Assembly (NCBI GenBank): GCA_044892505.1
Contig: CM097882.1
Coordinates: 160,518,001 to 160,582,000 of the forward strand
DNA: 64,000 bases
Direction of reading: 5' to 3'
DNA from: Schmidtea nova
Lineage: Eukaryota
The notes under the pieces are model-generated. The model had not been told where the DNA came from, ran no database searches, and saw only the letters and a list, made by a program, of their open reading frames with translations. Positions 7,900 through 51,879 of the stretch are shown in pieces. The stretch's first letter is position 1. Every line of letters begins with the position of its first letter. A program made the translations under genes and the position numbers.

Positions 7900-8119
7900 A
7901 ATAAATTATTATTTCTTCACCTTTATTAAATAAATTTAATTCAGTTATTTCCGAAATGGGATTTGTAAAAGTACAATTCTGCATTGATGTAGAATTTGAA
8001 AAAGATTGACAATTCCAATCTTTTATAATATCAAATTTCGCAAAACCCATGAGTGATATCTTTTTAGATGATGGTATTGCTCTATTAAGTGAAAAAATTA
8101 CTAAAGTCTGCGAAAATGG
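7900..8119 (+). pseudogene. Maverick/Polinton protein-primed DNA polymerase B, 5' part (interrupted by LTR element)
   Basis: Reads ...GFVKVQFCIDVEFEKD*...LSEKITKVCENG and continues in frame across the ATGG TSD into SNLSINKIKE at 22061. Confidence 0.7.
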
Positions 8120-9228
8120 TGTTGAGGTCCAAGATTTTTAGATCTCAACGCGCACTGGTGTACACTATAGTATATAATAATAAAATCAAGTCTTTTGAAA
8201 AATTTATTCAATAACAAAATTTACCAAATTCAAAAATCAAAAGTTATCAATTACGCTTTCAAATCAAAAGTTATCAATTACGCTTTCAAATCTTCACACT
8301 GTTTTATAAAGTTTATTTAAAGGATATTTTTTGCGTGTCCTACTGTGTGCTTGTTATATAATTAAATGTTATTTGTTTTATTTACTCTTTTAAATATGTT
8401 GGACCTTTTTGTACTGTCCTTTAATGTTAATGTTCTCGCAGGATTTCCCTTTGAGAATAATAAGGCGCAATTTTTGGTTGAAAGCAAGTTTCAAAAATTG
8501 TGGGGCAAATTTTAAAAATTTTCACTTCTTTAAATACTAAAGTTTTTCGTACTCGTTATTGAAATAATTAAAATAATTTCATCTAGATATTGAAACAATT
8601 AAAATAATTTCGTTATTGGAACAAAACAATTAAAACAATTTCAAAAATGTTGACTCGCTACCGAAACAAAATAATTAAAATAATTTCCTTTATCTATTTT
8701 TCCATGCTACAATTATGTTGCCCCGATTCTAATATCCGTTGAAATAAAATAATTTCAACATCCATTGAAATAAAATATTTCATTAAAAAGTACATAAATA
8801 TTAATAATAATTTTCTAAATTATATACATTTAAAAGAACTAAAATAATATATCGCATTCCCAACTAAAATAATAATATCCAATGTTGAATGTTCATATCA
8901 AATATTTACACTAGAAATAAAATATATACAAGAAATAATATATCACATTCCCAATAATAATATCAAATGTCGAATGTTAAGGATCAAATATTAAATATCA
9001 AATGTCGAATGTTAATCAAATATTAAATATCAAATGGATGTTGATATCCTGGTTGGTGCTTGGATTGATTGTGCACTGGGTACTGATTGATATTGGGTTC
9101 TGTTTCTTTTTGAATATTGGTTGTATCGACAGGCTCTGTATAAATAATAACTCTGTATTTGTTGCCCCCCACACTATAATTTTCTGATAGGAGGAATGTA
9201 TTGATGGGCTTACCTTCATCATCCAACA
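8120..9228 (-). repeat. 3' LTR (1109 bp)
   Basis: Matches 20953-22060; about 6 substitutions and one 1-bp indel seen by eye. Confidence 0.97.
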
Positions 9229-11122
9229 TTCCTCCCCGGGCCGTCAAAGTAATGTCCTCATTACCCTTGTCACACAATATTAAATCAATTCTTTTCTCTT
9301 TTATTTGAATTGTTGTTTTTCGAAATCCATTTTTTATCACAAGGTTTATCGTCTCCTCGTGCTCAATTTGTCTTCCAAAATGAGTGCAGAGATCTTTTTC
9401 TGAGACATACTTTTTGTCTTTGTCTATTATGAAGTCTGATTCTTCTGGTTCTGTCCAGTCGGCTAACATTTCAACGTTTGGTTCTGGTCCGATATCCTCT
9501 TCCATTATGTTGTATTTATTACTTGTTGATGGTTCTTCACTATCTTCTTCCATTTTGATGTCGTTACTGCTGGTTGAAGGTTCTTCTATGTTTTCATCTG
9601 CTGAGAAATATTCATCATCTATATCACATTCGTCCATTCTTTCATATAGAATATTTTGAATTTTGGGTTCTGCTTTGATTTCTCTAGTTGGAGCGATAAG
9701 TGGTATTTCTTCTTTTATGATCATGAGTTCATCGTCGTCACTGTCCATGAGCTCTTCCATGAATGACTTTTTTGGTTTGTAATGATTGGTTTTTGTTGAT
9801 TCCCCATGGGACGGCTCCATGCCTTCTCCATCTTCATATTCACTTTCTATCTCACCTTCTGCTTCGCTCTCTTTTTCGTTTTCGAATATTGTTTCTAGTT
9901 GTTCTTCTCCTTTTGCTTGTTTCCTTTTAAGAAGTGTTGCGGAATCCCATTTGACAACTTCTTCCCATTTATTTTCTGAGATATCGTAGATAACTTTTAA
10001 TAGCATTGTGGTGATCTTTGTTGAGAATGGTTCTGGTTGTCTCAATATATCATTTAACTTTTTATCTTTATGCCAACTTTTATGGTAATTGATTACCTGG
10101 TAAGCCAAATTTGATATTTTTATTTTTGGTGGGGCCACGTTTTTTACAAAAGAACACATGAATCGATCCTGTGCCATTTCTCTTATGCCCATAATGTTGT
10201 CCAGATCTATCGTCAATAGTTTTAACTTATCTATGATGTTGAATCCAACTATGATCTTTCCATAGAGAATGTTTCGAATTTCATTTAAGGCTTTATATTC
10301 GTCTTCATTTCCAATTATGTTTTCTTTTGTAGATTTAGTTTTTTCCGTGTAGAATTTTTCTACTTTCGTTCTTGGGGTGATGAACTTGTTATACAGAATT
10401 GCTCCTTTTTTGCTTCTGATACAAATTTCCACTGGTCTGAGATTTTTGTTTATATCTTGAACTACTTTTATATCCACAATTACAGTTAATGAATGCCTTT
10501 CTTCTGTCGTTAATTCTTGATTCGTGAATGATATCTTCTGGTTGATCATATCTTCATTAATTTGTAGGATTGAATGTATTGGGTTTAATTTTATGAACGG
10601 ATTTGGGATTGTCGGGATATATAGCACTTCGATTGCTATCACACATGGTAGGTTATTCATCTGCACTGTCAGCTCATTGAAATCGTTTGACATGCTTCTG
10701 TCTTTTCTTATTAACTTGATAACTGCTGAACAGTTGCTTGTGACAATTAACGGGATTTTATTTTGACATATTGCAACTTCTGTTTTTGTCATGTGGAATA
10801 TTAATCTGTGAGGGATTCTCTTGTTTTCTGCAACTTCTTTGTCGACGTTTTGGTATTTGTCGAAGGTTCCAATAAGCTCTTTGAGTTTCACTCTTCGGGC
10901 CTCATTGAATTTTATCAGATGCATTTCCCGTTCTTCTATTTCGACTTTCATGTCGTTTGGGATACATATTTGATTTGGGAAACTGCGAATTGTAATTGGG
11001 GTTCCATCAGTACATATCTTGTTCTGTAGATTTTTGTAAAAACTCATGTTGAGTTTGTTTATAAAACAAGTGTATTTCTGGTAGGTTCTTGATTGATTGA
11101 AATGAGGTTGATTTTGATTCAT
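9023..11122 (-). CDS. 699-aa accessory ORF: DEDDh (ISG20/REX4-like) exonuclease-like domain with degenerate catalytic motifs, acidic region, C-terminus encoded in U3
   Basis: VIVDIKVV...VEICIRSKKGAILYNKFITP...FYTEKT...EIRNILYGKIIVGFNI..KLKLL resembles REX4-family VAIDCEMV...G.VLYDKYVKP...RT.VSGI...LL.GRILVGH.L..DL..L. Intact ATG-to-stop ORF. Confidence 0.75.
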   Translation of the reverse strand: MNQNQPHFNQSRTYQKYTCFINKLNMSFYKNLQNKICTDGTPITIRSFPNQICIPNDMKVEIEEREMHLIKFNEARRVKLKELIGTFDKYQNVDKEVAENKRIPHRLIFHMTKTEVAICQNKIPLIVTSNCSAVIKLIRKDRSMSNDFNELTVQMNNLPCVIAIEVLYIPTIPNPFIKLNPIHSILQINEDMINQKISFTNQELTTEERHSLTVIVDIKVVQDINKNLRPVEICIRSKKGAILYNKFITPRTKVEKFYTEKTKSTKENIIGNEDEYKALNEIRNILYGKIIVGFNIIDKLKLLTIDLDNIMGIREMAQDRFMCSFVKNVAPPKIKISNLAYQVINYHKSWHKDKKLNDILRQPEPFSTKITTMLLKVIYDISENKWEEVVKWDSATLLKRKQAKGEEQLETIFENEKESEAEGEIESEYEDGEGMEPSHGESTKTNHYKPKKSFMEELMDSDDDELMIIKEEIPLIAPTREIKAEPKIQNILYERMDECDIDDEYFSADENIEEPSTSSNDIKMEEDSEEPSTSNKYNIMEEDIGPEPNVEMLADWTEPEESDFIIDKDKKYVSEKDLCTHFGRQIEHEETINLVIKNGFRKTTIQIKEKRIDLILCDKGNEDITLTARGGMLDDEGKPINTFLLSENYSVGGNKYRVIIYTEPVDTTNIQKETEPNINQYPVHNQSKHQPGYQHPFDI
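9229..9240 (-). promoter_or_regulatory. Polypurine tract
   Basis: Minus strand GGGGAGGAA immediately precedes the 3' LTR start TGTTGG. Confidence 0.85.
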
Positions 11123-11149
11123 CTTTGTTTTTGATTGGTATCGAATTGA

Positions 11150-11430
11150 TTTCTTGATATATTGATTTGAGAGATGATTAATAGGGTTTTGACGGTTTGA
11201 CAGAGATATAATTGAATATATTGAGATATTTGGGTAATTGTCGTAACGATTCGATTGGTCTATAGAATTGACGAGATTGATTGGGTATTTTGTATAGAGA
11301 TAATTGGTAGGGTTTTTTGATTGTTTGTTGTGACAGTTTAAAAAAGAGATGATTGTATTTATTGAGATTTTTGAATGGTTGTTGCAATGATTTGATTGGT
11401 GTGTAGAATTGACGAGATTGATTGGGTTTT
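11150..11430. repeat. Diverged tandem duplication of about 141 bp in the pol-ORF4 spacer
   Basis: gattggt.t.tagaattgacgagattgattgggt occurs at 11253-11286 and 11394-11427. Confidence 0.75.
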
Positions 11431-11587
11431 CGGAATTTGTTGGAACTTGCTTTGTTTTGCTCGTGTATTCTTTTCTAAAAATAAAGGATAAAGTTTTTTG
11501 TTTAAGGCGTATTGTCGGTTTAACCTTATACGCTATATAAATACGAATATATATATGATTTTAATTATTATTATTGACCAAAACGTA

Positions 11588-12375
11588 TTATACCAATGTG
11601 GATTTTGTATATTCACCTGGTATATATTTGCCCAAATGGAAATGTCCTGGTACATTTCTGACCAGTCGGCTCCGATACCGCTGCCTTTTCCACTTGTACT
11701 TTTTATAAATTTGTACGCTAGTTATTAAAGCTAAAACTGCTAATGCTATTATTGATGTTGTGATGACATAATAAGGCCAATGTGGCTTTTTATCCTCTTT
11801 ACGAAATGCTTGTAGTTCCTCTAAGTTATGTATCACTATTGGTCTTTCTTGCCTTATTTTGATAGGTTCTTGTTTTTGTTTTTTGGCATTGTATTGTTTT
11901 TGGAATTTGGCTATTCCAGTGCTTGTTGGTATTTCGTTTGTATGTGGTGTGGTATTTAGTATATTATCTGATGTCGTTGTTGTGCTTTTTATTCTATCGA
12001 GTGTTTTTGTTATGTTATGGTTTTTTGTTATATTCTTGGGTAATTGTTCTGTTTTTATTTTTTTGCATCTCCATGTTGTTGTATCTGTGTTTCTCTGTAT
12101 GCAGATTCTGTATATTGTATTAGGTGCTAGTTTTGTGAAATTAATATAGTTTCCTCTTTCGATTTCGTTGGTTGTTCTGTCGTCTTTTCCTTTTATCATC
12201 TTTGGGTTTTTCCCGTTCGTTGTTTGCATGTATAAATCAATTACTCCTCTATTTATGATAAATGCTCTAACTTCGTTTGTTGATATTTTTATTAATACTT
12301 TGTCAAATTCTATTGTTTCGGTTGAGCCAACAAATGTTATGATTGTTAAGAAGATAGCCGATATTATTAGTTTGT
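11588..12375 (-). other. Type-I membrane protein module fused after integrase (signal peptide, FN3-like domain, Thr-rich stalk, TM, basic tail)
   Basis: KLIISAIFLTIITFVGS (12325-12375); NFTKLAPNTIYRICIQ resembles the FN3 L.P.T.Y.ICV motif; STTTTS stalk; YYVITTSIIALAVLALITSVQIY (about 11704-11773) followed by KKYKWKRQRYR. Confidence 0.75.
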
Positions 12376-15300
12376 TATGAGATCTTAGATTATACTTGTG
12401 AGGTTTATCTATCGTGACCTCGGCTTCCGCCAACTTGCATCTGTTGACATGTACTACTATTGGATCCTCGTTTTTATGTTTTTGTAAGTGTAAATTCTCA
12501 TTTATTACTTTTACTACTTCATATGGGCCTTTATATGGTCTTGCTAATTTTGTTGTTTTTCCCTTTCCTACTTGTGGTGACATAAGTCTAACCTTATCAC
12601 CTACTTTAAAGTTGTGTGGTTTACTATTTTTGTCGTAGTCGGCTTTGTACTGTTCTTGTCTATATTTGACTTTTAGATTGGCTACTTTATACACTTCTTG
12701 CAGTTTTTCCTGCATTAGTGTGACATAATCTGGTGCATCTAAATATTGTGATACTCGAGGTTCAAATATTGTATCTATTGGTGTTGCTGGTTCTCTTAAA
12801 AACATTAAATAATACGGTGAATACCCTGTTGTTTCGTTTGGAGTGATATTATGAATGTATGTGCATTGACTTATGTATTCGTCCCAATCATTTTGATTTT
12901 TTCCTACAGAAACAGCTAGTCTGCTTAGTAATGTCCCATTAAATCTTTCTACTAGTCCATCAGTTTGAGGGTGATACGCTGTTGTGTTGATCTTTTGCAT
13001 GTTAAAAATATTAGCTACTCGTTTTATTAATTCACTAGTAAAATTTGTTCCTTTATCTGTTAATAATCTTTTGGGTGTGCCTATCTTGAAAATAATTTTT
13101 TCTATAAGCAATTTAGCAACTGTTTCTGCTGTTTCGTCTTTTGTTGGAAATGCTTCTGCCCATCTAGTAAAATAATCACTAAATACTAGTATATGTTTAT
13201 TCCCATTAATTGTAGTAGGTAATTTACATAGAAAATCCATTGCACATAGTTCCATTGGTGATGTCGTTGCTGGAATGGGATGTAACGGCGCTTTTGTTTT
13301 TGTACCTGTATTTTTTCTTGTTGCACATATTGTACACGCGTTACACCATCTCTTAACATCTTTCTTTAATTCTTCCCAGTAATATTTTTGTAATAATCTA
13401 CTTGCTGTCTTTCTAGATGATAAGTGACCTCCTAATGCTCCATCGTGATATTGTAGTAGGAGTATTTGTCTTAATTTCTGAGGTACTACTATTAGTTGCT
13501 TACCATTGAAATCTTCTATTACTACTAATTTCTTTGATATTTTATACTTTGAATTGTTTTCTTTTCTGATTTCATTTTTTATTTTACTGATCTCTGGGTC
13601 TTTCATCTGTTCCTCATATATATCGATTGGTTTTTCTGCTACTAGTGCAAATATTTCAAGTGCTCCTAATTCTGGTATTCTTGATAGTGTATCTGCGTTT
13701 TTATTTATTCTACCTGGTTTATATATAATTTTTAGGTGCATGTCTTGTATTTTCATTGCCCATTTAAATAATCTACTTGATGTATCTTTATGTTTCCATA
13801 AGCCTTCTAATGGTTTATGGTCAGTTCTTATTATCACTTCAGTCCCATATATGTATGGTTTGAATTGTTTTAGGGCGAATACTATTGCGTAACATTCTTT
13901 TTCTATTGTTGAATACCTCAGCTGTGCTCCTTTTAATGTTTTACTGGCATATGCTATTACGTAATCTTTCCCTTTTTCTTCTTCTTGGCCTAAGACTGCT
14001 CCTACGGCTTTCCCGCTGGCATCCGTCATTACTATAAACTGTTTTTCGAAATCTGGGTATCTTAACACTGGTGCTGTTATCAATCTTTCTTTTAGTTTAT
14101 TGAATGCTTCTTGATGTTCCTTTGTCCACTTCTTTTGTATCTTGTTAACTTTGCTGTTAATTTCTTGTACTATTAACACATTTTTGCATTCTCCTTTTGT
14201 TCTAATTCCCTTTGTTAGTTCTATTATCGGTGATGCTATCTTTGCATAATCTTGTATGAATTTACGATAGTACCCTGTTAGACCTAAAAACCCTTGTACT
14301 TGTTGTACTGTTTTTGGTATTGGGAATTTCTTTACAACTTCTATTTTTTCTGGATTTGGTTTTATCCCTTCTACTGTAACTATATGCCCTAGAAATAACG
14401 CCGAAGGTTCTGCCCATTTACACTTAGTTGGTTTAATTTTAATTTTTGCTTTTCTTAGTCTCTCGAGTACATTTGTTATATCTTTTAAGTGTTCCTCAAA
14501 TGTTTTTGATGATATTAGTATATCATCCATGTAAACTGCGCAATGTTGTACATTTACTAATATTGTGTTCATTAGGCGCTGAAATGTAGCTGGTGCGTTA
14601 GTTAACCCGAAAGGTAATCGTGTGTACTCATATAAACCATCCTCGATAACAAATGCTGTTTTTTCCGCATCCCCTTCCTCCATTTGAATTTGCATATATC
14701 CCTTATTTGCGTCAATAACTGAAAAATACTTAGCATCCCTAAGTTTATCGTATTGCTCTTGTGCTTTTGGGAATGGGTATGAATCTTTTACTGTTACATC
14801 ATTTAATTTACGATAGTCAATGCACATTCTTATTTCTCCGTCTTTCTTTTTAACGGGTACAATGGGTGATGCCCACTGTGAAAAACTCTGTTTTATTACA
14901 CCTGCATCGTTTAGTTCTTTGATTTGTCGTTTTATTTCCTCTCTTAACTTGTATGGTACGCTGTATGGTCTTTGTTTTATTGGTCTCGCATTACCTGTAT
15001 CTATTACATGTTTGATTATATCGGTATCTCCTAGATCAAATTCGTGTTTTGCAAAAACATCACTATATTTATCTATCAATGTTTGTAGTTGTGCTTGTTG
15101 TGTTATTGTTAAGTATTCATTATTAATTTTTACTTTGTCATATGATTTTATATTATTTATCTTACTAGGTTCGACTACTCCCTTGCCGTTATTATTCATC
15201 ACGCTTATCTCACTGACTTCGTACGTTTTTTCTAATTCACCTTTGAATAATTTTCCCAATTTCGTACCTTTGTGTATTTTAACATTACTTTTTTCATAAT

Positions 15301-15463
15301 TTGCTATTCTCAATGGTATTATTCCCTTTCTCGGAATTACGCATTCATTGGTTAGCATTATATTCTGATTTTGTATAATTGCCGTTTCTGGCTCAAAAAT
15401 AAAAGTGTCCTCACTTTTGATGTTAACTTTTAAGGGAATTATATGATCGCATTCATATTCCAA
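11588..15463 (-). CDS. pol: Pol segment: RT, RNase H, integrase (HHCC, core, GPY/F), then a C-terminal signal/FN3-like/TM module
   Basis: WASPIVPVKKKDG, MCIDYRKLN, LPFGLTNAPATFQ, YMDDILI; TDASG, EKEC, TDHKPL; H-GGH..C..C; MDF, TDKGTNF, GLVERFN; YKGPYEV. Continues ORF2 in frame across one TGA. Confidence 0.97.
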   Translation of the reverse strand: MEYECDHIIPLKVNIKSEDTFIFEPETAIIQNQNIMLTNECVIPRKGIIPLRIANYEKSNVKIHKGTKLGKLFKGELEKTYEVSEISVMNNNGKGVVEPSKINNIKSYDKVKINNEYLTITQQAQLQTLIDKYSDVFAKHEFDLGDTDIIKHVIDTGNARPIKQRPYSVPYKLREEIKRQIKELNDAGVIKQSFSQWASPIVPVKKKDGEIRMCIDYRKLNDVTVKDSYPFPKAQEQYDKLRDAKYFSVIDANKGYMQIQMEEGDAEKTAFVIEDGLYEYTRLPFGLTNAPATFQRLMNTILVNVQHCAVYMDDILISSKTFEEHLKDITNVLERLRKAKIKIKPTKCKWAEPSALFLGHIVTVEGIKPNPEKIEVVKKFPIPKTVQQVQGFLGLTGYYRKFIQDYAKIASPIIELTKGIRTKGECKNVLIVQEINSKVNKIQKKWTKEHQEAFNKLKERLITAPVLRYPDFEKQFIVMTDASGKAVGAVLGQEEEKGKDYVIAYASKTLKGAQLRYSTIEKECYAIVFALKQFKPYIYGTEVIIRTDHKPLEGLWKHKDTSSRLFKWAMKIQDMHLKIIYKPGRINKNADTLSRIPELGALEIFALVAEKPIDIYEEQMKDPEISKIKNEIRKENNSKYKISKKLVVIEDFNGKQLIVVPQKLRQILLLQYHDGALGGHLSSRKTASRLLQKYYWEELKKDVKRWCNACTICATRKNTGTKTKAPLHPIPATTSPMELCAMDFLCKLPTTINGNKHILVFSDYFTRWAEAFPTKDETAETVAKLLIEKIIFKIGTPKRLLTDKGTNFTSELIKRVANIFNMQKINTTAYHPQTDGLVERFNGTLLSRLAVSVGKNQNDWDEYISQCTYIHNITPNETTGYSPYYLMFLREPATPIDTIFEPRVSQYLDAPDYVTLMQEKLQEVYKVANLKVKYRQEQYKADYDKNSKPHNFKVGDKVRLMSPQVGKGKTTKLARPYKGPYEVVKVINENLHLQKHKNEDPIVVHVNRCKLAEAEVTIDKPHKYNLRSHNKLIISAIFLTIITFVGSTETIEFDKVLIKISTNEVRAFIINRGVIDLYMQTTNGKNPKMIKGKDDRTTNEIERGNYINFTKLAPNTIYRICIQRNTDTTTWRCKKIKTEQLPKNITKNHNITKTLDRIKSTTTTSDNILNTTPHTNEIPTSTGIAKFQKQYNAKKQKQEPIKIRQERPIVIHNLEELQAFRKEDKKPHWPYYVITTSIIALAVLALITSVQIYKKYKWKRQRYRSRLVRNVPGHFHLGKYIPGEYTKSTLV

Positions 15464-15519
15464 TTCAAATGCTTCTAATGCAACAACTTCTGTGAACTTG
15501 GATTTATGTTTAATTGCTT

Positions 15520-15850
15520 TTCTCTTTATCGTATTATCTGTTAAATCTATAATTCAATTTTCTAACTTGTTGAGTATATCGATTCCCAATATACATATGC
15601 TATTACATTCTTGCACCACTTTAAATATGTGGTTTATTACCTGTTCTGGTGTTTCGACTATTAGTTCTATGTCTCCCTTTAGTGGAATACGATGTGCTGA
15701 TAACGATACTACTTTATCCGTTGTGCTCATAATATTTCTTTTTTGATCATCTGTCAGTTGATCTTCTCTAATTAAGGATGTTGCTGCTCCTGTATCTACT
15801 AATGCATTTATGATTATATTGTTTATAATTATTCTAAGTCTTGGTCTTGC
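15520..15850 (-). other. Retropepsin aspartic protease domain (TGA at 15554-15556 near its C-terminus)
   Basis: RPRLRIIINNIIINALVDTGAATSLI...CILGIDILNKLEN*IIDLTDNTI. Confidence 0.92.
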
Positions 15851-18800
15851 TTCGTTTGCTGCATCTAATCGTTCCATTGTTTCGACTTCTAAGCTATAAC
15901 AACCATATATCTTTTTAGGTTCACAATAACAATTCTTGTTTTCTCTAGGAATTTTGATTTCTATATTTTCTTGTAGCTCTTTTAGTTGTTCTCTTTGGTT
16001 TTCATATAGTCCTTGTTGTGGTACATTTCCTCCATGTGATATATGCGCTTTAATTATTTCCTCATCGTTTTCATCATCTACCAGTAATTGCCTTTCTTCA
16101 CTCCTTTGGACTTTTATTAAACGTATTTCCTTGTCGTGTTTCGCCGTAATAAGATATTTAGCTATAAATGGGCACAAACATGCTAATAATTTATATGAAT
16201 TTCCAAATACTTGTTTTAGCTGTCTCAGTGATACTAGAGAAGAACATATCATTTTTAGTAATGCAACCGTATAATATATACCTAAGATTGTAGAAAACAT
16301 GTTTCCAAGGACTGCAAAGTATCCCCATATGCTATATAGTACTTTATATGCTACTTTTTTGAAGTATTCTTTTGATAATAACACATCAAAGTTGTAATTT
16401 CCTCCGTAACTTCCTTCGATAACTCTGTTAACCATTATTGAAAGTACTCTTTCTTTTTCGTTTGGAAATAGCATGTGTTTTCTTGCACTTTCTATAGCTT
16501 CTCTCGTATATATACCATTACTGTCCATATCGTTGATTTCTTTAAACTCTAATCTTTTTTCTAGCTCTATGAGTTCTAATTTGAGTGGTTTCATTGTCTC
16601 TTTTCTATCTGACATAGATATCCACATTTCGTCATTTATTTTGTATAATGGGTCTAATAGGTTAGTGCATTTTTCTATTTTTCTCGGTATATATGTTTTT
16701 TCTGTTAATATTCTAGTAATTGGTTGAAGGTATACCCTTTCTCCTTTATATATTACCGGTAATTCATTAGCGCACTGATTATTTGTTGCTAACGATACAC
16801 TAACAGGTTTACATTGAAATGTCTGTATCACTTCTCCTACTATCCTTGCAAATGTTCCTTCTTCTGAGAAGATTATTGGTGCCATTAAATCTGGGTTTGT
16901 TACCGCCACTGCCATTTTTGTCCTCAATATTTCTCTGTTGAGTTTGCAATCGCTCATAATTGTTGATTGATATACTTTATCTAATTGTACTAGTTGGTTA
17001 TGATAGAAAAAATCGATTTTATTGTTGAAGTATGATGCAAGTTTGACGTCGAATTTATTTACTTTTTGTTTTGCATCTTTGACTTCCTCTTTGCTTATGT
17101 ATATCCCTTCATAATTAGTTTGTATTATTTCCTTACCACATTTTACACTTTTCCTTTTACTAACAAACCTCATTGCTTCGTTTTCAGATTCTGACATATA
17201 TATTGTTGGTGTATCTTTTTCTTGTACAATTGTTGTTTTCCTTTTTTGATCTCTCACCCTTTTTGAGTCTACTTCTGTGAACTGTTTTCCTTTGATTTCC
17301 CTAAATTTTAATGATTTTAATTTTGTTAACTGACAATCGTATTTATCTATTTTGTATATTAGCATTGATTCTCCTGTATCGCAATAAGATTCTTCTAATG
17401 TACAAAATTTGTATATCATCATTTTCTTTGAGCTGCTGTCGAATGATGCTTTGAACTTTCTCAGTTCTACCATGTAGTGTCTCCTTACTACAACATTACT
17501 CAGTTTTTCGCCCCATATTGTATATTCTCCTCCTTCACAATATCCTCCTTTTGATGTCCATCCCACGACATTTACATCTTGTCTCATTTTTGCCCCTATC
17601 CTTGCTTCTAGTTCTATTCCTTTATGACCGCTATATTTTACTTTCTTTGTTTTAAATGCATCTTCACACTCTATTGGCGACAATATTACTGCTTCGGGTG
17701 TCCACGTAGGTTTTAACACTGTTCTTGCCCCAACATGACATATATATGCTTCCTCCTGATACTTTACTATGCACTCTTTAGCCTCTGTATGAATAAAGTC
17801 TGATTCTTGATAAACATGGAATCTTTGAGGCTCTGACATGATTAATTTAGTTGGATTTGCTTCAGGGCAATTTTCAACATCCAACAGTGAGTATTTTTGT
17901 CCCCACTTTGGATTTTGACAATCGTATGCTACCATTGCATTGCCCCCCTTGATTAAATCTAATAACAAAGTGATTATGACTATTACTATGGAGGTTATCG
18001 ATTTACTCTCTGTCTTTGGTTTTACTGTTGCTTTCTTTATTAATTGTTTTATTACATCATCTGTATCACTCTCTTTATTCGTCGTATCTTTATCATATAA
18101 TACTTTCCATCCTCCTTTCTTTTTTATCCATGGTATTGCCTCTACTTTCAATCTTTTAAACATCATTGTTGCTACTTTTTCTAATTGCTCTTTTGGATTT
18201 TCCTTTAGGAGCTTTTTATATCTTGCGGCCAAGTATGCCATGGCCGTTATTATTTTATCTTTATCTATCCCTGTATTAAACAGGATTTTTAACACTGTTT
18301 TTTCATTTGCTTCCTCTGTAGCTAGTTTTTTAGTATCCTTTTTAATTAACATCATCCTTTCAGTTATATTTTCAATTAGTACTGTTGGCTTTGTTTCTGG
18401 AAATAGCTTAATATTTATTGCTTTTATTACTTCTTTTATTTTGTTTACGTCCTTATTATCGTCTTGATACTCTGATTGTTTATGTTTATGTTGATTTGCA
18501 ATCTCTCTTAATCGTTCTGCTGTCTTCCTATTCTCCGATTTTTCTATTATTTCTGATTTTCGAGGTCTTCCTCTACCTCGTTTTGATGTTTCTGCATCTT
18601 TTGTTTTTGCTTCCTCAGCTATTCTTTCTATTGTTTCTTGTAAGTTGCTATACTTTTCATCTATAGGTTTAAATATAATTTCTTCATCCATTACTGATTT
18701 CTTTGTTTCGCTAGGTGATTTATCCCATAGCCTAAATAATCTATCAAAATCGTTTTCTTCATTTATACTCAGCTCAACCGACGGTACTGGCGTCACTATT

Positions 18801-19000
18801 TCATCGATCATTTGTTTTTCTACTGTGGCTACCACAATATTATCACTTACTGGGTTTATCCCATAATCGATTAAGTACTCGTCACTTAATAATTCTATTC
18901 CGTTAAAATATAATTTTATTACATCTTTCTCTCCTATGGTTCCTGGCCATTTGGCTCTTACCATTCGTTTTAATTTGCTCACTTTAGTGCAAGGATGCAT
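15554..19000 (-). CDS. Middle polyprotein segment: ubiquitin-like, AT-hook, Bcl-2-like, signal peptide, chuvirus-G/gB-like glycoprotein, TM, aspartic protease
   Basis: See sub-features. Protease ALVDTGAATSLI ... ILGIDIL at the C-terminus. Confidence 0.92.
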   Translation of the reverse strand: MHPCTKVSKLKRMVRAKWPGTIGEKDVIKLYFNGIELLSDEYLIDYGINPVSDNIVVATVEKQMIDEIVTPVPSVELSINEENDFDRLFRLWDKSPSETKKSVMDEEIIFKPIDEKYSNLQETIERIAEEAKTKDAETSKRGRGRPRKSEIIEKSENRKTAERLREIANQHKHKQSEYQDDNKDVNKIKEVIKAINIKLFPETKPTVLIENITERMMLIKKDTKKLATEEANEKTVLKILFNTGIDKDKIITAMAYLAARYKKLLKENPKEQLEKVATMMFKRLKVEAIPWIKKKGGWKVLYDKDTTNKESDTDDVIKQLIKKATVKPKTESKSITSIVIVIITLLLDLIKGGNAMVAYDCQNPKWGQKYSLLDVENCPEANPTKLIMSEPQRFHVYQESDFIHTEAKECIVKYQEEAYICHVGARTVLKPTWTPEAVILSPIECEDAFKTKKVKYSGHKGIELEARIGAKMRQDVNVVGWTSKGGYCEGGEYTIWGEKLSNVVVRRHYMVELRKFKASFDSSSKKMMIYKFCTLEESYCDTGESMLIYKIDKYDCQLTKLKSLKFREIKGKQFTEVDSKRVRDQKRKTTIVQEKDTPTIYMSESENEAMRFVSKRKSVKCGKEIIQTNYEGIYISKEEVKDAKQKVNKFDVKLASYFNNKIDFFYHNQLVQLDKVYQSTIMSDCKLNREILRTKMAVAVTNPDLMAPIIFSEEGTFARIVGEVIQTFQCKPVSVSLATNNQCANELPVIYKGERVYLQPITRILTEKTYIPRKIEKCTNLLDPLYKINDEMWISMSDRKETMKPLKLELIELEKRLEFKEINDMDSNGIYTREAIESARKHMLFPNEKERVLSIMVNRVIEGSYGGNYNFDVLLSKEYFKKVAYKVLYSIWGYFAVLGNMFSTILGIYYTVALLKMICSSLVSLRQLKQVFGNSYKLLACLCPFIAKYLITAKHDKEIRLIKVQRSEERQLLVDDENDEEIIKAHISHGGNVPQQGLYENQREQLKELQENIEIKIPRENKNCYCEPKKIYGCYSLEVETMERLDAANEARPRLRIIINNIIINALVDTGAATSLIREDQLTDDQKRNIMSTTDKVVSLSAHRIPLKGDIELIVETPEQVINHIFKVVQECNSICILGIDILNKLEN
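16140..17935 (-). other. env: Envelope glycoprotein domain, chuvirus-G / herpes-gB-like (class III fusogen-like)
   Basis: Preceded by a hydrophobic signal (SITSIVIVIITLLLDLIKGGNA). Starts VAYDC..YSLLDVENCP. Cys-rich ectodomain with CG..I.QTNYEGIYI, FARIVGEVIQTFQCKPV, CANELPVIYKG.RVYLQPITRIL. Hydrophobic TM region VLYSIWGYFAVLG...LLKMIC. Confidence 0.8.
18092..18523 (-). other. Bcl-2-like helical domain
   Basis: BH1-like ILFNTGIDKDKIITAMAYLAA and BH2-like EAIPWIKKKGGWKVL (W at 18107-18109) with Bcl-2-like spacing, followed by a hydrophobic anchor. Confidence 0.65.
18554..18583 (-). other. AT-hook motif
   Basis: KRGRGRPRKS. Confidence 0.8.
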
Positions 19001-19054
19001 CTTTTGTTTAATACTAAAAAATTAATTATCATTTGATTCAATCGTTACATTTAG
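18824..19054 (-). other. Ubiquitin-like domain spanning the gag stop codon
   Basis: LNVTIESNDN*FFSIKQKMHPCTKVSKLKRMV...IKLYFNGIELLSDEYLIDYGI matches the Ub pattern (V.P.TKV..LK; L.F.G..L.D...L.DY.I). Confidence 0.7.
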
Positions 19055-20704
19055 TGTTTCATGCAATTTTTCATTTTTTCTTATATATTCTCCATAACAT
19101 TTCAGCATCTCTTTTATTTCTATTTCTAATTCAAATACTCTCGTTACATTTTGTCTCTTTACCATCATTGGTATTAAATTTCTAAGTCTCTCTAAATCAA
19201 TCCCATTAACCTGTATTTTATTGATTACTCTTAATGTTTCATTGTCATCAAACGGTTGCTTATGCAATACCTCTTTAAATTCCTCTATTAATTCTTTTTG
19301 TCTATTTTCTTCTGTAAGAAATATTTCATCTGCTTCTCTAATTTCCTTTAACTCATCATTATCAATATCTACCTCATTTGTAAAGGTGCTAAATTCATTT
19401 ATAGACATTTCAAGTTTTCTCTCAATAAGTCTTCCATATTGAGTTTTAAATTCTTTTAGTTCCTCTCTTAATATATTTATTTCTTTATTTGCTGATTCAA
19501 GCTCAGCACTATTTACCTGTTTTATCTCAGGCTCATTTTTAAATCTTACTCTTATTGGTGAATCTGCTCGTGGTTTATTACATACCTTTGCTAGGTGACC
19601 ATACTTTTGGCAATTATAACATTTTATTTGTCCATTAAAATTCACTTTATCTCTACCATCATTATTATAAGTATTTCGCCTCACTGGGCTATCTTGCCTA
19701 TTTCTCGAATTATCTCTATATCTATTATCTCTTCTATTATATTCGAAGCGACTATCTCTATTATTTTTATTATATCCACTGTAACTGTTTCTGTTATTAC
19801 CAGAACGACTATCTCTAAAATTATCTCTGTTGTCTCTATCATTATCTCTATCAAAACGATTGTCTCTAAAACTGTCTCTATTATTATTTCTTTGATAACT
19901 ATCTTTAAAATTATTTCTATTTCTATTATCGAAATTTTTATTTCCTGGACTATTAAACCTTCCCCTGTTTTCAGGTGATTGGCTTCTATTAGGACTAAAT
20001 TTTCTTCTATTATTAACAAATTTCAAGTATAATTGTTTCATTTCTTCCCAGGGAATACTGTCATCCTTATTTCTCAACTCAGGTTTTACCTCGGGTTGTT
20101 TTTCAACTTCTACAGCATCTACCTCTGGTTTAAATCTATCTCTTTGTATTGCTTCAATGCGTTTTGCCTTTTGAACTAACTCATTTAAGTCTTCATACTC
20201 AATTGTAATTAATGCTTTGTATAAGTATTTTTGGATGCCGTTCCAAAACTGATCCTCAATTAATTTACTAGTGTGATCTCCGGCACCAAATGCCTTTTTT
20301 GCTAATTCTGTTATCGTGTATATATATTCACCTACTGATTCTCTGGCTCCTTGGTATCTACTTCTAGATTTTTGAACATTTATTTTTTGTAAGTCTCGAT
20401 CTATTACTATTTCTTTTCTAAGGTTTGTAACTAACTCTTGATAATTAATGCCTTTACATGCTAAATTATTGTATGCCTGTAATGCGTATCCCTTTAAGTA
20501 TAATGGGATTCGTTGTTTTAATTCATTTGTTTTCCATCCGCAAGCTTCTGCATACTGTGCGATTTCGGCAAAAAAGTCGTCGAACTTTTCAGGGTCTCCT
20601 TTATATGATTCTATTGGTAATGTTTTTATAAAATTATGGCTGCTTATGTTGTCTGTATTACTGTTACTTCCACTATTGCTGCTGCCTGTACTATTATTAC
20701 TCAT
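19022..20704 (-). CDS. gag: Gag: capsid domain, R/D/N-rich region, CCHC zinc knuckle, coiled-coil extension
   Basis: YKGDPEKFDDFF..AEACGW; RYQGARESVGEY; CYNCQKYGHLAKVC. First ATG at 20704 (the track start at 20737 is TTG). Confidence 0.93.
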   Translation of the reverse strand: MSNNSTGSSNSGSNSNTDNISSHNFIKTLPIESYKGDPEKFDDFFAEIAQYAEACGWKTNELKQRIPLYLKGYALQAYNNLACKGINYQELVTNLRKEIVIDRDLQKINVQKSRSRYQGARESVGEYIYTITELAKKAFGAGDHTSKLIEDQFWNGIQKYLYKALITIEYEDLNELVQKAKRIEAIQRDRFKPEVDAVEVEKQPEVKPELRNKDDSIPWEEMKQLYLKFVNNRRKFSPNRSQSPENRGRFNSPGNKNFDNRNRNNFKDSYQRNNNRDSFRDNRFDRDNDRDNRDNFRDSRSGNNRNSYSGYNKNNRDSRFEYNRRDNRYRDNSRNRQDSPVRRNTYNNDGRDKVNFNGQIKCYNCQKYGHLAKVCNKPRADSPIRVRFKNEPEIKQVNSAELESANKEINILREELKEFKTQYGRLIERKLEMSINEFSTFTNEVDIDNDELKEIREADEIFLTEENRQKELIEEFKEVLHKQPFDDNETLRVINKIQVNGIDLERLRNLIPMMVKRQNVTRVFELEIEIKEMLKCYGEYIRKNEKLHETLNVTIESNDN

Positions 20705-49000: not shown

Positions 49001-51879
49001 GATGATACAGCAGCACCCATTGATCCATTATCATTCTTGGAACATACAAAAGAAAATGACACTCTCTCTTTGCAATGCCATTTGACTGTTGAGGTGAAGA
49101 TTGCTAATCATCCAGAAGGTAAGTGGTCCCTATAATATGATCTAGGTAGAATGTTGTATATCATTTAATTGTTTTTATATTACAGACGACCATCAAGAAG
49201 CCGATATTGAGGATCCATCCCAGTGGTTCGCCCTCAACGATGCGTTAAGAATTCAGTTGGTGAAAAGAGGTTCACGACAAATCATGGACGTACAATTTCC
49301 ACTAGATGATAAAGGAAGGAAATTTAGTTCCCATCACTACAAACCAAATCTTGTGAATGGAGAAAGTGTGACACGTTCTTGGCTAGTTTATTCGAAAAGT
49401 AAGAACGTCGTATTCTGTTTCTCGTCTAAACTCTTCACGAAAGAATCGGTGGCAATAACAAACAGTGGTTGTTGTGATTGGAAAAATATGTCCGCTATTC
49501 TCTCAAGTCATGAAGTGTCGCCAACCCACATAAAAGCTTATATGCAATGGAAGGAGTTAGAAGTTCGTTTGCGTACAGAAAATACTATTGATGCAGCCAA
49601 TCAGCGTGTCGTAAAACAAGAAGTCGAACACTGGAGACAAGTATTGGAAAGACTCATCGGACTCGTTAGAGTACACGCAGTTCAAAACTTAGCATTTCGA
49701 GGTTCGTCCGATAAGCTTTTTACGCCCAACAATGATAACTTTCTTCAATTTGTTGAATACTTAGGAAGCTTTGATCCTGTAATGAAAGAACACATCCGGC
49801 GCATCAAAAGTGATGAAGTTCATGTGCACTATGCGGGCAAGAATATTCAAAATGAAGTCATTGGATTGTTGGCAAAAAGGTGAGAGACGAAATTCTTAGT
49901 GAAGCCAAAAATGCAAAATACTTCTCAATAATCTTTGATTGTACATCTGACGTTAGTCATGTTGAACAAATAACTTTTGTGATTCGATTTGTGTCCTTGT
50001 GCGAAGCTCAAGAAGAACGTGTTGTAAATTTTGCTGTTCACGAACATTTTCTGTAATATGAGGTTGCATCTAATACAACTGGGGCTGGAATGACGAATTT
50101 AATTGTGAAGAAGATCGAGGAAATGGGCTTTGTTTTGACTAATCTCAGACGGCAAGGTTACGACAACGGCTCTAACATGAAAGGAAAGCATAATGGCGTA
50201 CAGAAGAAAATTCTTGATTTAAATCCTCGAGCATTTTATATCCCTTACACTGTTCATTCACTGAACCTTGTCGTCAACGATGCTGCACATTCCTGCACAG
50301 AAGCTGTCAAATCTTTTGGAGTCGTACAGGCGGTGTAAGTGTTTTTTTCTGCGTCCACACATTGCTGGAAGGTTCTCATGAATAATGTGTCGGGTCTAAC
50401 TGTCAAACCTCTCAGTGAAACGAGGTGGTCAAGTAGAGTAAATGCCGTTCGTGTTTTACGTTATCAAATTCGAGAAGTCTAGGATGCCCTTGTCTCCATT
50501 ATCGAAGATACGACTCTAACTGGAGTGACTGCCTCACAAACTCGTGCAGATGGTCAAGGAATTGCATTTCAGCTGAGTTGCTTCAAATTTGTTGTTAGTG
50601 TGGTCGTTTGGTATAACATCCTTTACGAGGTCAACTTTGCGAACAAACTGCTTCAATCTCAATCTGTCGACATGTCCGAAGCTGTCACTCAGCTGAATAA
50701 AACCATTCAATATCTCGTAAACTATCGCTCTGACGACAGCTTTCTCAAAACTCTTGAAGAGGCAGAAGACTAAGCAAAAGATCTGGAGATAGACCCAACA
50801 TTTCCTGGTGTGACGCGAGTTCTGGATCGTACGAAAAAACGAATGTTTCAGTATGAAGCGGCTGATGATCAAATATCAGATCCAAGACAGTCGTTCAAGT
50901 GTCATTTTTTCTTCGTGGTGTTAGACGCTGCTATCAACTCTATGGAAGAGCGCTTCACGCTCTTGAATGCTCATCACACACTGTTTGGGTTTCTCAGTTG
51001 TATTGGAGGAGACTATCAGTCCGCCACCTTTCTTGAAAAATGCCGATCATTAGAAAAAGCTCTGACTGACGACAGTGACAACGACATTGATGTCCTCCGT
51101 CTTTTTGAAGAAATAAAATGCCTACAACATCGAATTCAAGAGAGAAAAACACCAAAGCAGTTGCTTGAATTTATCTTTGCTAATCAACTGTGCAGTGTAT
51201 TACCAAATTTGTCTGTGGCTTTGTGCATCATGCTTACTATCCTAGTATCTGTTGCAGCAGGAGAATCCAGCTTCTCAAAACTGAAAATAATAAAGAATTA
51301 CTTGCGACCTACAATGGCAGAAGATCATTTATCGGGCTTGGCTATTCTCTCCATTGAGAAAGAAATGGCTTCCAAGGTGGACATCGGCGAACTTGCTCGG
51401 AAATTTGCCTCAATAAAAATAAGGCACATTCCATTCTTTTCTGATTGAACTATTGTCTGTACGGTTTGTCTGTATTTCAACAATTACATCGCACACATTC
51501 TCTGACCATGTATTTTTTCAGTAGACGGTGTAGAATAAATAGAATTGTAGACGGGCAGTAGAAAAGATAATTACAACAACAAATATTAAGAGAAACATGA
51601 AAGATGAACGCACAGTGATTTAAACAATCCAAAATGAACTTTACATATAGGCTATAGGGCGGCAAATTTGCGTTTTGCCTAGGGCGGCAAAAACCCACCA
51701 GCCGGCCACGGTAACTAGTCACTGAATAAATACTTTATTTGAACTATGTACTTACTTATAATTAATTTTTTATGAGAAATTTAAAATTTGGAACGTATTT
51801 TCCAAATTTAATACAAAAGTGGGTTCACAGTGCGCGGTTTCGGTTTGCGCGCTGTTTTTTTCAGAACGAGGGATTACCG
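46048..51879 (+). mobile_element. pogo/Tigger transposon, degenerate transposase about 46504-48198, with a hAT inserted near its 3' end
   Basis: CENP-B HTH (RKRNILTLKVKLAIVKEIENG), FSACKGWFERFKRR, VFNADETGLFWK, ILLILDNTPSH. Termini CAGTAATCC / GGATTACCG. Confidence 0.88.
48299..51710 (+). mobile_element. hAT transposon (ZMYM-like/TTF-zinc finger and hAT dimerisation domains), disrupted transposase about 48824-51448
   Basis: TIR cggggccggct / agccggccacg. TSD GTAACTAG (48291-48298, 51711-51718). RSWLVYSKSKNVVFCF, LAFRG, QGYDNGSNMKG, ETRWSSR, ESSFSKLKIIKNYLR. Confidence 0.95.

Follow-up and report, generated by a model that had tools for sequence, protein, structure and literature searches.

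An FN3-type surface protein fused to the integrase C-terminus of gB-carrying Ty3/gypsy elements

The pol polyprotein of a Ty3/gypsy LTR element with a gB-type fusogen as its env continues in frame beyond the integrase into a second surface protein, composed of a signal-like segment, an ectodomain modelled as an FN3 domain, a stalk, a transmembrane helix and a basic tail with a PDZ-type C-terminus. The element lies in a stretch of 64,000 nucleotides from Schmidtea nova (contig CM097882.1, positions 160,518,001 to 160,582,000), referred to here as the window, whose own numbering is used throughout. The element type is known already; the cassette is what is new, and a second surface protein of FN3 type that ends in a PDZ-type motif is apparently an undescribed clade feature of gB-carrying Ty3/gypsy elements. 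We interpret its architecture and topology as those of an accessory type I membrane glycoprotein of the gag-env(gB)-pol clade, with a probability of roughly 0.9, whereas the odds that it serves as an adhesion and cell-to-cell-spread helper beside gB are about even.

Organization of the element

The element occupies the minus strand and comprises the following features:

8116-8119 and 22061-22064: target-site duplication ATGG, 4 bp, flanking the element
8120..22060 (-): whole Ty3/gypsy LTR element, 13.9 kb, gag-env(gB)-pol order
20953..22060 (-): 5' LTR, TG...CA ends
about 20933-20950: PBS-like 18-mer
19025..20836 (-): ORF1, encoding gag with a CCHC knuckle; an in-frame TAA comes next (19022-19024)
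15557-19021 (-): ORF2, with a Bcl-2-like stretch, internal signal, gB-type fusogen and protease
16232..17998 (-): signal inside ORF2 (aa 342-362), then the ectodomain and membrane anchor of a gB-type class III fusogen
15557..15853 (-): aspartyl protease, end of ORF2, followed by an in-frame TGA (15554-15556)
11591-15553 (-): ORF3, 1321 aa, RT, RNase H, integrase and tail, stop at 11588-11590
12377..15553 (-): RT, RNase H, integrase and GPY/F, ending in KYNLR
12320..12376 (-): predicted internal signal sequence (heuristic), with basic n-region, 13-aa h-region and a candidate site between VGS and TET
12044..12319 (-): FN3-fold beta-sandwich by model, aa 1079-1170, one sequon
11774..12043 (-): stalk with three sequons, Thr-rich in its first half
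11705..11773 (-): predicted transmembrane helix, 23 aa
11591..11704 (-): basic tail, predicted cytosolic, C-terminal STLV at 11591-11602
9026..11560 (-): ORF4, extending into the 3' LTR
about 9229-9242: purine-rich tract adjoining the 3' LTR
8120..9228 (-): 3' LTR

TG...CA LTRs within a target-site duplication, the order protease, RT, RNase H and integrase, and a gB-type env identify this as an env-carrying Ty3/gypsy element, which makes it an errantivirus as PMC13524379 uses the term operationally. The fusogen is recognized by the Pfam family PF24664 (E 4e-89), and its membrane anchor by hydropathy. While the protease closes ORF2, RT and integrase share one continuous frame, ORF3, which stays open without a stop from RT via RNase H and integrase to the end of the tail. 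The gag gene, ORF2 and ORF3 all lie in one reading frame and are parted by single in-frame stops, so this is not an intact copy, which leaves its family assignment unaffected. A preliminary description of this DNA had placed both surface proteins at two points of one polyprotein; that arrangement is realized in the relative P0001, a single 3771-aa ORF, but in the present copy it is interrupted twice. Both stops align to points at which P0001 is continuous (the end of ORF1 with 603 and the start of ORF2 with 606; the end of ORF2 with 2012 and the start of ORF3 with 2015).

The two LTRs are identical at 1102 of 1108 positions. Since a divergence of about 0.3% per LTR leads one to expect, by our estimate, one to two nonsense changes in 9 kb, the copy is most likely young but disabled, and it may not express the FN3 protein at all. 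No second copy of the element was found within the 64-kb window. Programmed read-through of the two stops is less likely than mutation, as P0001 is continuous there and the first stop splits a ubiquitin-like-looking stretch. This stretch, at the gag/env junction (about 18812-19060, minus strand), is common to P0001, P0002 and P0003; its label was given by eye, and a library search with it returned no match.

A signal-to-tail cassette follows the integrase

The GPY motif of the integrase (aa 1010-1012) is succeeded by KYNLR and then by the cassette, which makes up the last ~260 aa of pol. Every part that the preliminary description had named, namely the hydrophobic run, the domain with LAPNTIYRICI, the Thr-rich stretch, the helix and the basic tail, was found in its place; it was silent on the C-terminal STLV and on the two upstream in-frame stops. 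The hydrophobic run (aa 1063-1075) has 13 residues and a KD value of 2.75, compared with 3.22 for the gB signal, and LAPNTIYRICI occupies aa 1142-1152. The putative transmembrane helix spans aa 1261-1283 (best 19-mer KD 2.23) and is followed by a net charge of +7 across 15 aa. Between ectodomain and helix, the Thr-rich stretch (aa 1173-1215; T 28%, S 7%) accounts for about half of a stalk of ~90 aa. Serine and threonine reach 17% across the 90 aa before the helix and 11-22% in the stalks of relatives; the term 'mucin' is therefore too strong for this stalk, although its first half is indeed Thr-rich.

The tail frame is unlikely to be an accident of base composition. Its 262 codons were matched by none of 5000 base shuffles (longest 135), which argues against a chance open frame; the remaining two same-strand frames contain 28 and 15 stops over the same interval. 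The tail also resembles the pol core in composition, with GC/GC3 of 0.324/0.277 against 0.327/0.232. An internal ATG start was considered and rejected, given that the nearest methionine lies 71 aa upstream, within the integrase, and is not conserved. Also of note, the KYNLR motif (12380-12394, minus strand) has counterparts of the form [RK]Y.[LF]R at the integrase end in 10 of the 13 clade rows described below, and we take it to resemble the chromatin-binding YNLR motif of foamy-virus Gag.

The ectodomain is modelled as an FN3 domain

The AF2 model built with an 11-row alignment is a beta-sandwich (pLDDT 77.8, pTM 0.68), and according to this model the ectodomain is an FN3 fold, in keeping with what had been proposed from its motif. 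Foldseek against the PDB placed FN3 domains in the top rows, with 19 at E<=0.001. The best VIA match was fibronectin 6mfa (Z 10.1, rmsd 2.7, 86 residues aligned), and 37 chains scored Z>=8. The alignment-free model, with a pLDDT of 59.5, is again an Ig-like/FN3 sandwich; its Z of 7.9 to 6mfa is middling and tied with two bacterial Ig-like domains. A profile of the same alignment searched against PDB sequences gave 35 matches at E<=10 (best E 0.0047), 31 of which are, judging by name, presumably FN3-containing proteins. The tyrosine-corner pattern L-x-P-x-T-x-Y of strands E-F is retained, with L65 invariant and Y71 shared by at least 90% of the rows, all 11 of which were picked by this motif.

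The domain shares 7-20% identity with its structural matches. FN3 domains usually carry a strand-B Trp, and this residue is absent here. A Cys pair lies on strands F-G in the window domain, as opposed to strands C-E in relatives. Pfam fn3 (PF00041) did not match the window domain and matched 2 of the 11 rows, at best with E 0.026; Pfam, NCBIfam and PDB sequence searches (E<=10) left the domain unnamed, the sole NCBIfam row (E 0.01) falling on the transmembrane helix. No LRR was matched ahead of the FN3 domain, which begins right after the signal. Atlas offered FNDC5 (0.89) and FNDC9 (0.87), both below 0.9 and to be taken as leads only. The best 50 BFVD rows were generic FN3/Ig-like viral domains, with one at E<=0.001; no herpes glycoprotein was seen among these 50, which is not evidence of absence.

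The fold also speaks to an alternative role for the protein, as a decoy or dominant-negative receptor that mimics a cytokine or growth-factor receptor through tandem FN3 domains and a helix, soaks up ligand, occupies PDZ scaffolds and favours cell survival, without a direct part in entry. Domains of interferon and interleukin receptors are among the VIA matches (Z 8.2-9.2), relatives carry one to three repeats, several of them with Cys pairs, and the clade collects host-modulating domains (Bcl-2-like, ISG20-like exonuclease and, in P0007, ankyrin). VIA rows within 1 Z count as tied, however, and an adhesion molecule cannot be told from a cytokine receptor by its fold. A function in the particle or in spread would be the better match for a protein that is co-translated with the fusogen and encoded in the env slot, and in our judgement the repeats differ too widely in number and sequence to mimic a single ligand. 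We regard the decoy role as unlikely.

The cassette is retained across a clade

Relatives were reached only via a gB search (3 matches) and an integrase search (best 120 of 189). Among the matches listed, 12 close pol relatives together with the window constitute the 13 clade rows, P0002 being left out for want of an integrase. In an integrase tree of 38 rows, comprising these and 25 of 110 more distant pols, the 13 rows form one clade with support of 100/99, with the window row on a long branch. Their integrases are 49-91% identical, and the rows are not independent of each other in any of the counts below.

The complete cassette, from signal through ectodomain and helix to tail, follows the integrase in frame in 11 of the 13 rows, the window included, so that the conservation expected of a genuine module is present. 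The slot after the integrase is the usual position of env, as the preliminary description had remarked and as the available text of Chary & Hayashi (eLife, PMC13524379) also indicates. P0005 has the signal and FN3 domain, and its record ends before any transmembrane helix. The ORF of P0003 includes gB but no cassette (the downstream DNA lies outside the record); its integrase is followed instead by a domain resembling a protease and by a basic tail. P0012 keeps a signal and helix in the same slot around a short, Cys-rich, non-FN3 ectodomain, with a long, Tyr-rich cytosolic tail.

Retention on this scale largely refutes the reading of the tail as a passenger, that is, a captured piece of host gene or chance read-through without function. 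Direct searches returned no sequence homologue of the tail among 1467 candidates or 1.84 billion representatives, and stops interrupt this copy, as a passenger might lead one to expect, but the in-frame retention at such integrase divergence, the sequon enrichment and the conserved terminal motif make it very improbable.

A profile to which ten relatives contributed one repeat each detects repeats on which it was not trained (iE 2e-7 to 0.025) and finds nothing in the 110 more distant pols. In P0013, it reveals a second signal-FN3-TM cassette near the N-terminus (aa ~45-235), upstream of the protease (iE 4.5e-7), which indicates that the polyprotein carries the cassette as a module able to move. 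Neither this profile nor BLAST detected the window domain, and an 18-repeat profile of relatives scored it at 2.5 bits, with shuffles reaching 10.9; the 18 repeats were picked by motif and include one false pick on a transmembrane helix, P0006_r3. What links the window domain to those of its relatives is hence its position, topology, fold and tail, and the domain could be an independent capture.

Outside the clade, four distant pols (P0018, P0021, P0058 and P0073) carry 860-960-aa signal-to-TM tails after a chromodomain. These tails, for which a library search gave no match, are probably env, and they indicate that an internal signal after the integrase is a route in use.

These distributions also bear on how closely the FN3 protein is tied to gB. 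One possibility is an obligatory partner, in the manner of gD or gH/gL, whose receptor binding would be needed to fire gB; both proteins would derive from one polyprotein in P0001, and the accessible text of PMC13524379 notes that HSV needs gD/gH/gL and calls the entry of gB-type GAG-ENV-POL elements unknown. P0003, with gB and no cassette in its ORF, and P0012, with its swapped ectodomain, both oppose such a requirement, and an ectodomain that diverges much faster than gB fits poorly with a fixed protein-protein trigger. An obligatory trigger is thus improbable. The two-component entry system suggested earlier, attachment protein plus fusogen, survives in that the second surface protein is real, but probably not as an obligatory pairing. 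Here it should be noted that gB adjoining the cassette is seen in this element and in P0001 only, the other clade rows being partial proteins.

Putative marks of function on both sides of the membrane

The 11 ectodomains hold 62 sequons, as against 33 in shuffles, and none of 2000 shuffles reaches 62, an enrichment that would fit lumenal domains. By a loose rule, (-3,-1) sites are present in 11 of 11 cassettes. Hydropathy, charge, these sites and sequon enrichment agree, as heuristics, on a type I topology, with a predicted cleavage after the signal; of the cleavable signal proposed earlier, the signal-like segment with its (-3,-1) site is supported and the cleavage itself is a prediction. There is no conserved methionine ahead of the signal (the nearest lies 1-131 aa away across relatives), which, like the second cassette of P0013, fits release by polyprotein processing.

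A C-terminal S/T-x-V/L/I is the motif of a class I PDZ ligand. Such an end is present in 9 of 11 cassettes, against 3 of 110 control pols and 0.33 expected from composition, in a count whose clade rows share ancestry and in which truncation may affect some of the control C-termini. P0010 and P0012 do not carry the motif. The cassette tails are otherwise 12-51% identical. This conserved end, which did not figure in the preliminary description, suggests that the protein also acts at the cytosolic face of the membrane in the cell that makes it, presumably in sorting or anchoring.

The ectodomain, on the other hand, changes rapidly. Pairwise ectodomain and integrase identities are 38/91, 37/87, 42/85 and 22/79%; gB is 38-51% identical where the integrase is 51-64%, whereas the ectodomain is down to 22-25% where the integrase is 78%. 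Fast divergence is expected at a host interface, and could instead reflect weak constraint. Together with the PDZ-type tail, it would fit a decoy receptor equally well. Surface topology and a PDZ-type retention signal are, in addition, compatible with a superinfection blocker that masks the entry receptor or incoming gB, a role also raised in the preliminary description. Strict co-expression with gB on the same surface would seem self-defeating for a blocker unless the two were spatially separated, and no positive evidence favours it, which makes this role quite improbable.

A model for the FN3 protein as a spread helper

On the reading that we favour, at about even odds, the FN3 protein would be an adhesion and spread helper that acts beside gB. 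In a working copy, it would be translated as the end of the polyprotein, alongside gB. The internal signal would thread the cassette into the ER, where host signal peptidase would free the FN3 protein from the integrase, leaving it N-glycosylated and anchored by its transmembrane helix. Judging from hydropathy and charge, four passes through the ER membrane are expected for the polyprotein, at signal 1, the gB anchor, signal 2 and the second transmembrane helix, with gag and pol facing the cytosol and gB and the FN3 domain the lumen. The integrase would then have to be released from the signal stub; an extra protease-like domain is located between integrase and signal in P0001, P0004 and P0007.

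We speculate that the fast-evolving ectodomain binds a partner on the host surface, and the conserved S/T-x-V/L terminus may bind host PDZ scaffolds and thereby direct the protein to polarised membranes or cell-cell contacts. By keeping the target cell in contact with the particle or the producing cell, the FN3 protein would allow gB to fuse, as a helper that is useful, not obligatory. Fusion by rhabdovirus G and by baculovirus GP64 needs no partner protein, which counts against the need for a helper. We can also envision, much more tentatively, a herpes-like division of labour in which a class III fusogen and a cell-derived FN3 adhesion receptor arise from one ER-spanning polyprotein and the PDZ tail builds a virological-synapse-like contact that steers particles from soma to germline; this elaboration is possible but doubtful. 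If true, retrotransposons would gain their first example of a two-glycoprotein entry system, and cell entry by gB-type errantiviruses could be approached directly. The FN3 protein, with its conserved signal, ectodomain, helix and PDZ-type end, can be expressed and assayed alone, and the implied topology would itself be unusual, with gag and pol emerging as loops in the cytosol from a polyprotein that is tethered to the ER by four passes.

Comparison with known systems

Among described elements, the closest are the gB-type 'ancient errantiviruses' (GAG-ENV-POL) of Nematoda, Bryozoa and Platyhelminthes (PMC13524379), which share with this element a Ty3/gypsy pol, LTRs and an HSV/gB-type env between gag and pol. 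As far as the available text goes, they have only chromodomains after the integrase, where this element has a second, non-fusogenic type I protein. The words fibronectin, FN3, Ig-like, immunoglobulin and attachment do not occur in the accessible main text of that paper, whose architecture figures could show a tail without naming it. Rotifer LTR elements carry small TM-bearing ORF3s and DEDD exonucleases where env would sit (Rodriguez et al. 2017, PMC5408684), a likeness to the extras of this element, but these are separate ORFs, non-FN3 and not additional to gB, in contrast to a fused cassette beside gB, and their exonucleases are of the DEDDy/RNase D type rather than ISG20-like; the word fibronectin is absent from the portion of that article available. 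More broadly, the literature within coverage, which mostly excludes subscription papers, offered nothing relevant joining LTR, gypsy or Metaviridae with fibronectin.

Cellular proteins provide the nearest likeness in layout. FNDC5/irisin and FNDC9 likewise run from signal through FN3 and transmembrane helix to a short tail (irisin 4lsd, Z 8.4), and the LRR-FN3 protein ELFN2 was matched by the profile at E 0.089. LRR-FN3 proteins typically show both the L-x-P-x-T-x-Y-x-x-C pattern and a PDZ tail. In LRRN, FLRT, LRFN and ELFN, LRRs precede the FN3 domain, whereas the window protein is without LRRs and inside a retroelement polyprotein. Herpesvirus gE/gI sorts to cell junctions and promotes cell-to-cell spread; the likeness to it, as to gD and gH/gL, is a functional analogy only, between helpers of a class III fusogen, without kinship in sequence or fold. 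A retroelement surface protein with a PDZ-type C-terminus has a precedent in HTLV-1 Env, which the text available of PMC10671467 describes as regulated, including in its trafficking, by a cytoplasmic C-terminal PDZ-binding motif; there the motif is on the fusogen, and here on a separate, non-fusogenic protein.

Further domains in the element, its relatives and the window

The wider inventory of these elements suggests retrotransposons assembling the toolkit of a complex virus, with Bcl-2-like, ISG20-like, ankyrin and FN3 domains. The Bcl-2-like domain (18107..18304, minus strand) lies directly upstream of the gB signal, whose stub could serve it as a membrane anchor; it matches PF00452 at E 1.4e-5, under the cut-off, and TIGR00865 at E 5e-4, with Bcl-xL chains only at E>=0.13. 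ORF4 is in the same frame as the other ORFs, overlaps the 3' LTR by ~200 nt and has a 141-nt repeat in its 5' part. At about 10121-10468 it includes an ISG20/REXO4-like exonuclease stretch (PDB 1wlj, ISG20, E 4.9e-5), whose catalytic residues seem altered by eye.

Several aspartyl-protease-like domains per polyprotein occur in P0001, P0002, P0003, P0004, P0007 and P0011, including one after the integrase; ankyrin repeats follow the integrase in P0007, and P0003 has C2H2 zinc fingers. P0002 (gag-gB-PR) complements P0011 (PR-RT-IN-cassette), and as each lists a longest contig of 21743 bases, the two are possibly one element. The window as a whole is AT-rich, with N-gaps around 32-33 kb, and also holds GIY-YIG (Penelope-like; 34386-34865), Tc1/mariner (38342-39175) and hAT (49146-51445) remnants, all on the plus strand.
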